From IMG/VR virus record IMGVR_UViG_2684623127_000006: a stretch of 64,000 nt of DNA, one strand, 5' to 3'. This stretch comes from a virus. Taxonomy: Duplodnaviria > Heunggongvirae > Uroviricota > Caudoviricetes. Shown one piece after another: positions 4,859 to 5,706 of the stretch. The position numbers were made by a program, and so were the translations under genes. The notes below the pieces were generated by a model that searched no databases, was not told the origin of the DNA, and saw nothing but the letters and a program-made list of their open reading frames with translations. Every line of letters starts with the position of its first letter. Position 1 is the stretch's first letter.

Positions 4859-5148
4859 AGCCTGCTTCTCCTTGCCTTTCGGCACGTAAGAGGCTAACCT
4901 ACATGTGTTCAGCATGGATTGAGCCTCAGATTAATGTTAAGCGTCTTGCAGGACGCGTAATGTTAACTGGGGCTTTTCTCTATCTGCCGTTGGTGTTCAT
5001 GCCCGAGGCAGATAGCCTCAAGCACCCGCAGCAATTCTACTTAACTATCCTTTTCCCGCAAACCGTTTTTATCCCCAGCGGCAAATCGAATACACCACCA
5101 GCGCCACCGCCATCGCAATTCCTACCGTTGTGAATGCTTCAGGCCAGG

Positions 5149-5706
5149 TCATTGATTCACCTCCTGCGGCGGTTCTGGTAGCGACATCCAGTGGGTTGCT
5201 TGCCTAAGATCATTACCCGGACTAACTGCTATACCTCCGCGCCGGAACGTGCCTCCGAGATAGCGTGCGGAATATATTAATGGCCCAGCCTCGCTATCGA
5301 TATTCATCGAAATAAGCACGTTCTGGCTCTTTTCAGGCATTCGCTCAGTACAGCTTATCCAGCCATCCAGAGTTATCGGAGATCTGGTTGACGTTTCCGA
5401 GATTTCCCGAAAATTGTTGGTTGACGAATTCTTATTTTCCCGAAAGTTTCCGGCCTGAAGCATGGCGACGCGGCAGGCGTTCCAGCCATCAGCATATGTT
5501 TTAGTTACACCGTCGAGATGGCAGGTAAGCAAATCCATTTCATCAGGCACTACCATTGCTATCGGCTCTGCTTCCAGTGATGCCAGCGCGATACGAAACA
5601 CATTAGCCAGCAGGCTGTCTGAAGACTTGTTATCGTGCGCCGAGTCGCTCAGGAAGCCTGTGATGTATGATTTAATCTCCGCGCGTTCTCTGGTAATAGT
5701 GCTCAT
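5149..5706 (-). CDS. DUF551-domain protein
   Basis: 185 aa; C-terminal …WISCTERMPE… region shared with 51865-52509. Confidence 0.55.
   Translation of the reverse strand: MSTITRERAEIKSYITGFLSDSAHDNKSSDSLLANVFRIALASLEAEPIAMVVPDEMDLLTCHLDGVTKTYADGWNACRVAMLQAGNFRENKNSSTNNFREISETSTRSPITLDGWISCTERMPEKSQNVLISMNIDSEAGPLIYSARYLGGTFRRGGIAVSPGNDLRQATHWMSLPEPPQEVNQ

Follow-up and report, generated by a model that had tools for sequence, protein, structure and literature searches.

Two sites in this stretch of phage DNA carry a hok toxin gene preceded by a 9-bp inverted repeat, and the first-pass annotation read the repeat as an RNA stem that had undergone compensatory change between the copies and each site as having a small hydrophobic open reading frame upstream. 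The loci thus raise two questions: whether the stem is a structure of the hok mRNA leader or of the antisense region, and whether the small frames belong to the toxin-antitoxin system or only stand beside it. Here we trace both through a wide collection of hok homologues. In what follows, the window is the whole stretch of DNA that was analysed, at its full length of 64,000 nucleotides. We consider it very likely that both sites are complete hok/sok loci, that the 9-bp stem is the conserved hairpin close to the 5' end of hok mRNA, and that the small frames upstream are unrelated neighbours.

Results

Two hok/sok loci in lambdoid prophage DNA

Positions 4600-5750 of the window are 100% identical to many O157:H7 chromosomes and, to judge by this identity, the window is prophage DNA of Escherichia coli O157:H7. 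Its minus strand carries two complete hok/sok type I toxin-antitoxin loci, both in lambdoid prophage DNA (Table 1). The two 51-aa Hok frames match Pfam family PF01848 with 81.1 and 83.2 bits (cut-off 22), and the leaders match Rfam family RF01794 ('sok antitoxin') over the full length of the model (positions 1-157), at 4853-5027(-) with 113.5 bits and at 51394-51568(-) with 116.9 bits, the gathering score being 59. Despite its name, this model lies on the hok-sense strand, since its final positions are the hok AUG. Both loci also contain the upstream frame expected of mok in hok/sok systems, which overlaps hok, appears to have a Shine-Dalgarno sequence of its own and would couple hok translation to that of mok.

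The transcription start of hok probably lies at 5027 in locus 1 and 51568 in locus 2, where we place it because these are position 1 of RF01794 and stand 7 nt past a -10 box that is conserved across genera (TAGAAT, 5039-5034, in locus 1). A scan with the sigma-70 consensus returned no site at the hok or Sok promoters of either locus, and the hok and Sok promoters of locus 1 match only 6-7 of 12 consensus positions; we placed the promoters instead by aligning the loci with phage 933W and from the conserved -10 box. The hok mRNA deduced for the window loci comprises nt 1-398, from the tac element to just past fbi. On the opposite strand, the predicted folds of the Sok-like RNAs of both loci (z = -5.0 and -5.4) begin with a free 5' tail of 14 nt, followed by a long hairpin and then a GGGGCUUUU tail.

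Table 1. Features of the two hok/sok loci and their upstream frames (positions in the window; nt, position in the deduced hok mRNA)
Feature	Locus	Position	Strand	Sequence or remark	Basis
hok	1	4703-4858	-	51 aa	
mok-like 70-aa ORF	1	4703-4915	-	in frame with hok	MokW/HokW of phage 933W, 100% identity
mok Shine-Dalgarno	1	4927-4924	-	GAGG	read from sequence
fbi	1	4641-4653	-	nt 375-387; CCUCAACGCACCC; complementary to tac	folding, cross-genus covariation
ucb / anti-Shine-Dalgarno	1	4969-4975	-	nt 53-59; AAGCCCC	RNAalifold, folding
stem, 3' arm	1	4980-4988	-	nt 40-48; GGCAGAUAG; as read in the window CTATCTGCC	sequence, RF01794, folding
stem, 5' arm	1	5007-5015	-	nt 13-21; CUAUCUGCC; as read in the window GGCAGATAG	sequence, RF01794, folding
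tac	1	5016-5027	-	nt 1-12; GGGUGCUUGAGG	RF01794, -10 conservation, folding
Sok-like RNA	1	4907-4977	+	14-nt single-stranded 5' tail, long hairpin, GGGGCUUUU tail	933W sokW annotation
putative Sok promoter	1	-35, 4872-4877; -10, 4895-4900	+	-35 TTGCCT; -10 TAACCT	read from sequence, below scan threshold
sA	1	5069-5152	-	27 aa, hydrophobic; MTWPEAFTTVGIAMAVALVVYSICRWG; ATGA-coupled to DUF551 (5149-5706)	ORF list, sequence
hok	2	51244-51399	-	51 aa	
mok-like 70-aa ORF	2	51244-51456	-	in frame with hok; GAGG precedes	ORF list, sequence
fbi	2	51182-51194	-		sequence, folding
stem, 3' arm	2	51521-51529	-	GGCAGACAG; as read in the window CTGTCTGCC	sequence, RF01794, folding
stem, 5' arm	2	51548-51556	-	CUGUCUGCC; as read in the window GGCAGACAG	sequence, RF01794, folding
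tac	2	51557-51568	-	presumed +1 at 51568	RF01794, folding
Sok-like RNA	2	51448-51518	+		alignment with locus 1 and 933W
sB	2	51645-51749	-	34 aa, hydrophobic; MSDDISLAMEGALAVIAVVGVYCLVVFLMDRLGN; GGAGGG Shine-Dalgarno	ORF list, sequence
sA homologue	2	51785-51868	-	MIWPEAFAITGVAIAIDFLVYVICRWG; ATGA-coupled to DUF551 (51865-52509)	ORF list, sequence

Locus 1 has a close and experimentally tested relative. The record of the Stx2 phage 933W annotates sokW, mokW and hokW, and the 70-aa Mok/Hok product of that locus is 100% identical to the one in locus 1, which on this identity can be taken as MokW/HokW. From the end of the DUF551 gene to the first hok codons, a single leader base differs between the two, at the tip of the Sok-target hairpin. 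The neighbours in 933W and in the Sakai prophage Sp5 are likewise those of locus 1 (a DUF551-like gene, the sA frame, hok/sok and a YgiW-family gene), whereas the wider prophage context differs from that of 933W, with DUF968-RusA-DUF1133 genes following locus 1. Locus 2 departs further from hokW of 933W in having a different, HokD-like Hok C-terminus, a stem of the G-C variant and, upstream, an insertion of 175 bp; it is a HokD-type copy that has kept its regulatory leader, and PGAP gives the name HokD to an O157:H7 locus nearly identical to it (98.8% at the DNA level over 5 kb). [quoted passage not shown] Hok toxicity and its neutralisation by Sok have been published for this pair, and sokW RNA, followed experimentally with northern blotting among the methods, goes down upon induction with mitomycin C while HokW goes up; HokW is 44% identical to Hok of plasmid R1 (PMC8621323).

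Small open reading frames upstream of hok

The 27-aa frame at 5069-5152, which we call sA, had been described as coupled by ATGA to the stop of the DUF551 gene, and this is confirmed: its start overlaps that stop as ATGA, and an AGGAGG Shine-Dalgarno sequence lies upstream. The accompanying claim of a different 27-aa frame in each copy fails on an overlooked homologue of sA at the equivalent place in locus 2. What had been listed there, a 27-aa frame at 51665-51748, does have the GGAGGG Shine-Dalgarno sequence ascribed to it, but its length and ends were wrong, as the frame (sB) has 34 aa, runs from 51645 to 51749, and 51665 belongs to another frame. It lies within the 175-bp insertion, which is bordered by 11-nt direct repeats (CGTTTTTACCC, 51605-51615 and 51780-51790), and the near-identical O157:H7 genome lists it as a PGAP hypothetical protein. 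A search of phage genomes with sB by tblastn gave only 4 weak matches. We regard sB as a neighbour unrelated to hok that sits in a small insertion.

Could the two frames be open by chance, and untranslated? Both are very short, and searches of Pfam, NCBIfam and PHROG with sA and sB returned no family (best E-values 0.01-0.18, below the curated cut-offs where these exist, that is, for NCBIfam). A full-text literature search with the three small-ORF peptide sequences likewise gave no match, neither RefSeq 933W nor the inspected PGAP-annotated O157:H7 records annotate sA, and its hits in nr are named only 'hypothetical' or 'bacteriophage' protein. Against chance stands the evolutionary record of sA, which among the fetched loci occurs as 18 alleles at the nucleotide level, all of them intact and 25-27 codons long. 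The ATGA overlap with its upstream Shine-Dalgarno sequence is present in 17 of the 18 (all those with available upstream sequence), even behind different upstream genes, and pN/pS is 0.27-0.29 in frame as compared with at least 1 in the other two frames. The frame is under purifying selection. It is found by tblastn in 93 phage records, and its homologues in unrelated phage types retain both length and motif. For sB, the strong Shine-Dalgarno sequence and a divergent version with a GTG start and a conserved core, found at four loci, point the same way. On balance, we think it unlikely that these frames are the product of chance.

A conserved frame next to hok might be a third component of the system, and we rejected this idea for sA. 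In the phage records Stx2a_1447, PhiR12_1, Av-05 and 24-2-1 (L135-L138 in our collection), sA stands behind a gene of the Ea22/EaA/DUF551 type and no hok leader lies close to it, and its presence without hok in these four records indicates that it is a companion of Ea22/DUF551-type genes and not of hok. We conclude that sA is a conserved 27-aa peptide, predicted to reside in the membrane and to be translationally coupled to genes of the Ea22/DUF551 type, and that it is separate from hok/sok.

A covarying stem in the hok mRNA leader

The stems of the two loci differ at exactly two positions, which pair with each other and form A-U in locus 1 and G-C in locus 2 on the hok-sense strand. The compensatory change noticed at first sight is therefore real, with both paired positions changing; only the coordinate given for one arm of locus 2, 51531, was off by 10. 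As isolated 40-nt hairpins, the two stems have predicted energies of -16.8 kcal/mol (locus 1) and -22.5 kcal/mol (locus 2), with z-scores against dinucleotide shuffles of -4.3 and -3.7. The consensus structure of RF01794 holds exactly this 9-bp helix, nested within an outer GGGUGCUU/AAGCCCC stem, and the stem is accordingly not new but already part of a curated Rfam consensus.

The covariance analysis across hok homologues that had been proposed as a check was carried out on a larger set. We gathered hok loci via the Hok protein (47 from contigs of one genome per species, 80 from IMG/VR and five plasmid loci), so that the collection is unbiased with respect to the RNA. From these, 35 distinct leaders were aligned with MAFFT and used to build a covariance model, to which 80 leaders, 75 of them distinct, were then aligned; they come from eight genera (Escherichia, Shigella, Kluyvera, Citrobacter, Pantoea, Photorhabdus, Erwinia and Kalamiella), from IncF plasmids and from phage contigs. 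[quoted passage not shown] Across the 75 distinct leaders, the pair that varies between the window copies is AU in 42, GC in 14, UA in 9, GU in 7 and AC in 3. The AU state is that of hokW-type, Photorhabdus, Kluyvera and Citrobacter leaders, GC that of the locus 2 type, GU mainly that of hok copies (L014-L022) on the chromosomes of several Escherichia species, and UA that of Erwinia, Kalamiella, Pantoea and the IncF plasmids. In the Rfam alignments, the loci from Erwinia, Kalamiella and the IncF plasmids have the same helix, with U-A at this pair.

The extended helix shows double-sided change in 6 of its 11 pairs, and its covariation score was reached by none of 500 shuffles. Many of the 75 leaders are closely related, and cell counts exceed the number of independent events; with that proviso, 94.4% of the helix cells are paired, a share that drops to 39-56% if the 3' partner is shifted, and the nine core pairs contain 59 G-U and 19 A-C wobbles on the hok-sense strand, 16 of the 19 A-C falling at one terminal pair. 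The preference for G-U over A-C indicates that the structure belongs to the hok-sense RNA rather than to the opposite strand or to the DNA. The earlier reading of the stem as a conserved structure of the hok mRNA leader thus holds across the 75 distinct leaders.

The same reading had left room for the antisense region, and the stem might be part of Sok, either as its terminator or within the antisense-target duplex. The inverted repeat is symmetric and folds on the plus strand as well (-19.9 kcal/mol), and it begins just 3 nt past the mapped 3' end of Sok. By homology to sokW of 933W, however, Sok comes to its end short of the stem, and a stem that starts 3 nt beyond that end is outside both the antisense RNA and the duplex. 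Sok also has a long hairpin of its own, followed by the GGGGCUUUU tail. The letters after the stem are AGAAAAGCCCC on the minus strand and CCUCAAGCACCC on the plus strand, with no U-run on the latter, and a scan of both strands at both loci for a GC-rich hairpin with a U-run found no terminator-like site at the stem. The G-U wobbles of the stem would, moreover, be A-C mismatches on the plus strand. We have rejected the stem as a Sok terminator on its position, the separate long hairpin of Sok and the missing U-run, and consider any membership of the antisense RNA very improbable.

A second possibility is that the repeat acts as a palindrome in DNA, as a protein-binding or recombination site, and that the paired change merely maintains DNA symmetry. 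The arms are perfect over 9 bp, and an A-T to G-C change preserves symmetry in DNA and RNA alike. The spacer between the arms, however, varies between about 13 and 35 nt among the homologues, which would be unusual for a dimeric operator, and each of the 59 G-U cells breaks the symmetry of the DNA while keeping the pairing of the RNA. The 5' arm is in addition shared with a second conserved and covarying RNA hairpin (see below), and the transcribed leader in which the repeat is contained has a match to a structured Rfam family. On these grounds a DNA operator was rejected, and we give this reading next to no credence. Nor is it at all credible that the two-site difference is only hitch-hiking of linked polymorphisms, with two haplotypes and prophage recombination in place of selection for pairing: near-identical prophage copies are indeed numerous among the sequences and a few mixed arms, such as recombination within the loop would yield, do occur (A-C in 3 sequences, G-U in 7), but the variable pair takes four Watson-Crick or wobble states (AU, GC, GU and UA) in different lineages and five further pairs of the helix show double changes.

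The stem within the folding pathway of hok mRNA

As a hairpin of the hok leader, the stem or its 5' arm has a predicted place in each of the successive folds of the mRNA. In ViennaRNA predictions for the first 30-50 nt of both loci, the minimum free energy (MFE) fold is a hairpin of nt 3-13/19-29 that sequesters tac and takes its loop and 3' strand from the 5' arm of the stem. During transcription, the 5' arm and the tac sequence just upstream of it may thus form a metastable hairpin that keeps tac out of play. This hairpin is still present in the 50-nt RNA although the 3' arm is already included. At 62 nt, tac (1-8) is paired with ucb (53-59) and encloses the 9-bp stem in both loci, and we infer from this equilibrium fold that the stable stem can displace the metastable hairpin once the 3' arm has been made. 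In the full-length 398-nt RNA of both loci, tac (1-12) pairs with the 3'-terminal fbi (375-387), the stem stacks directly on this duplex, and ucb is paired with the mok Shine-Dalgarno sequence (103-106), which would be masked and leave the mRNA inert. Extending the RNA 5' to the start of sA did not change the hok fold, with tac/fbi, the stem and the ucb/Shine-Dalgarno pairing all retained.

Trimming of the 3' end would allow tac to pair with ucb around the 9-bp hairpin, freeing the mok Shine-Dalgarno sequence and exposing the Sok target. Binding of Sok would then lead to cleavage by RNase III, whereas upon loss of Sok, Mok and Hok would be translated and the membrane damaged. For the 3'-trimmed RNA of locus 2, which has the stronger stem, this canonical open structure is the MFE fold. 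For that of locus 1 (nt 1-358), it is the metastable hairpin rather than tac/ucb with the stem, and since the early hairpin is kept, thermodynamic prediction alone is no sufficient guide to which conformer of locus 1 is active. We suggest that the stem serves as a scaffold, present unchanged in either stable conformer, and that its 5' arm also goes into the transient hairpin.

The alternative pairings are themselves conserved. The metastable hairpin is paired in 96.7% of cells and has 4 pairs with double changes; its nt 12-20 pair, for example, is GC in 39 cases, GU in 21 and AU in 14. The conservation of both this hairpin and the stem means that nt 20 is constrained by two partners, the situation termed 'coupled covariation' by Gultyaev et al. 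1997. The tac and fbi elements also covary across genera (GGGUGC/GCACCC versus GGGCGC/GCGCCC). The published hok folding model, as set out in PMC9841398 (citing Gultyaev, Franch, Gerdes 1997), consists of tac/fbi pairing, ucb as an anti-Shine-Dalgarno element, dcb and a metastable 5' structure, and both the stem within the tac/ucb stem and its metastable alternative, as modelled here, agree with that pathway. The base pairings rest on folding and covariation; the functional roles are inferences drawn from the published model.

Relation to plasmid R1 and to other chromosomal copies

The hok/sok locus of plasmid R1 has the same order of elements as the window loci and a 9-bp hairpin in the matching place. 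Its hok mRNA is, we assume, 398 nt long, equal to the length deduced for the window loci, and its stem arms are presumably CUUUCUGCC/GGCAGAAAG; those of its IncF relatives read CUUUUUGCC/GGCAAAAAG in the Rfam alignment. In R1-type plasmids, however, mok is a separately annotated overlapping gene (DUF5431), whereas in the window loci it is an in-frame N-terminal extension of hok. The loop of the stem has 18 nt in the window loci and about 35 nt in the IncF plasmids, and the Sok-target hairpin of the window loci is longer than that of the Rfam consensus by a GC-rich stretch of 16 nt. In R1 numbering, we take the window stem to correspond to C12-G64 through C20-G56 of hok mRNA, which by our own mapping would make G64 part of the closing pair of this hairpin. 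The numbering was anchored on the pairing of U6 with A70 and of G4/C5 with ucb (PMC9841398). An R1 mutant with the change G64T has strongly lowered Hok protein, 'without a proposed mechanism' (PMC9841398).

Closer to the window loci, a group of homologues (L005-L022) belongs to the same Hok subfamily, with 78-92% protein identity. The chromosomal copies among them that have G-U at the variable pair (L014-L022) we take to be of the E. coli hokC (gef)/mokC type, and their leader is otherwise as in the window. Three loci (L007, L026 and L037), which we assume to be K-12-type hokD/relF, are without the entire leader, whereas locus 2, though HokD-type, keeps tac, the stem, ucb, Sok and fbi.

Discussion

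The covarying stem upstream of the two hok genes is genuine, but it is a 5' hairpin of hok mRNA that was described long ago, and the structure, the locus and the antisense RNA were all known already; the stem shows no feature that sets it apart from the known family. Current understanding of hok/sok is unchanged by this result, as the stem belongs to the textbook picture of how hok mRNA folds, and hokW-sokW has been both annotated in phage 933W and tested experimentally (PMC8621323). What the wider alignment adds is an independent reproduction, with new sequences and across eight genera, of the 'coupled covariation' picture, in which one arm serves two hairpins that exclude each other, one of them stable and the other metastable. 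By our mapping, the R1 loss-of-function change G64T, unexplained in PMC9841398, would fall in the closing pair of the hairpin.

Of the remaining points, only sA is of some interest: this family of 27-aa ORFs is conserved and under purifying selection, and the inspected genome annotations leave it out. A bolder proposal would make it a translated, as yet unnamed family of membrane peptides, obligatorily ATGA-coupled to Ea22/EaA/DUF551-type genes in lambdoid and Vequintavirinae phages, and would have read-through upon induction run on into hok and occlude the Sok promoter. We regard this combined proposal as distinctly doubtful. It takes its starting point from a simple scan of 4600-5200 in locus 1 for consensus sigma-70 promoters and terminators, which found no terminator-like site from sA to the hok leader, such that read-through from the early operon during prophage induction could reach hok in sense orientation, with occlusion of the convergent Sok promoter. 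If this were true, read-through into hok would account for two published observations, the RecA-dependent loss of sokW RNA and the emergence of HokW.

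Organization of the hok region

The tRNA, hok and DicF features of the window recur at a spacing of about 47 kb, which indicates that this DNA contains two lambdoid prophage segments sharing one gene order. The Rfam matches beyond the hok loci correspond to two tRNA clusters, two DicF copies, STnc100 and an IS3 ALIL frameshift pseudoknot. Although RF01794 is named "sok antitoxin", the model follows the sense strand of hok mRNA and its last positions are the hok AUG; its matches therefore mark the hok leader rather than the strand of a Sok gene. In the Hok subfamily represented here, mok shares the hok reading frame and extends it at the N-terminus, such that a single 70-aa ORF includes the 51-aa Hok, whereas the IncF plasmid loci L049 and L050 carry mok (DUF5431) as a separate annotated gene overlapping hok.

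Upstream of locus 2, a 175-bp insertion (51605-51790) is present relative to both locus 1 and the Stx2 phage 933W. It is flanked by direct repeats, contains a palindrome and the small ORF sB, and resembles a small gene cassette that was inserted here.

Coordinates of features in the window and in comparison records
Feature	Record	Position	Strand	Remark
RF01794 matches	window	4853-5027; 51394-51568	-	Rfam
mok-like ORFs	window	4703-4915; 51244-51456	-	70 aa
Target of Sok's single-stranded 5' tail	window	4907-4922; 51448-51463		hok mRNA nt 106-121
sA	window	5069-5152; 51785-51868	-	27-aa hydrophobic ORF
sA	L134	2501-2584		
sA	L135-L138 (phages without hok)	1501-1584		
Direct repeats CGTTTTTACCC	window	51605-51615; 51780-51790		11 nt, flanking insertion
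Palindrome CGATATGGGAATTCCCATATCG	window	51615-51636		perfect, 22 bp, inside insertion
sB	window	51645-51749	-	34-aa ORF inside insertion
Further Rfam matches	window	310-559; 12249-12300; 47283-47455; 48232-48478; 52921-53037; 59727-59778		
CRISPR-DR4 repeats	L043; L045	750-897; 862-889		RF01317; Erwinia sp.; Kalamiella sp.

A conserved small ORF

The ORF sA belongs to a conserved hydrophobic family with the motif M[TS]WP[ED]AF...ICRWG and a pN/pS of about 0.28, and every copy with upstream sequence available overlaps the stop codon of an Ea22/EaA/DUF551-type gene through ATGA. It is also carried by Vequintavirinae phages, and is left unannotated in the RefSeq 933W and PGAP O157:H7 records. 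A Shigella 121-aa "DUF551" protein clusters with sA at 90% identity, pointing to a frameshift fusion.

hok loci elsewhere and the Sok target

In L043 and L045, CRISPR-DR4 repeats lie about 100-250 nt upstream of the hok leader, so that the hok locus directly adjoins a CRISPR array. Separately, the contigs L013, L021 and L048, all very short and attributed to Acinetobacter idrijaensis, Xanthomonas pisi and a Candidatus Scatousia MAG, respectively, carry E. coli-type hok whose matched portion is 91-100% identical at the protein level; this probably represents assembly contamination.

Among 41 prophage leaders of the hokW/hokD type, variability is highest in the segment targeted by the Sok 5' tail (mean entropy 0.86 bits), as against 0.00-0.07 for tac, ucb, the mok SD and dcb. 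Several positions of this target differ between the two copies in the window, and its variability may confer a distinct antitoxin specificity on each copy.
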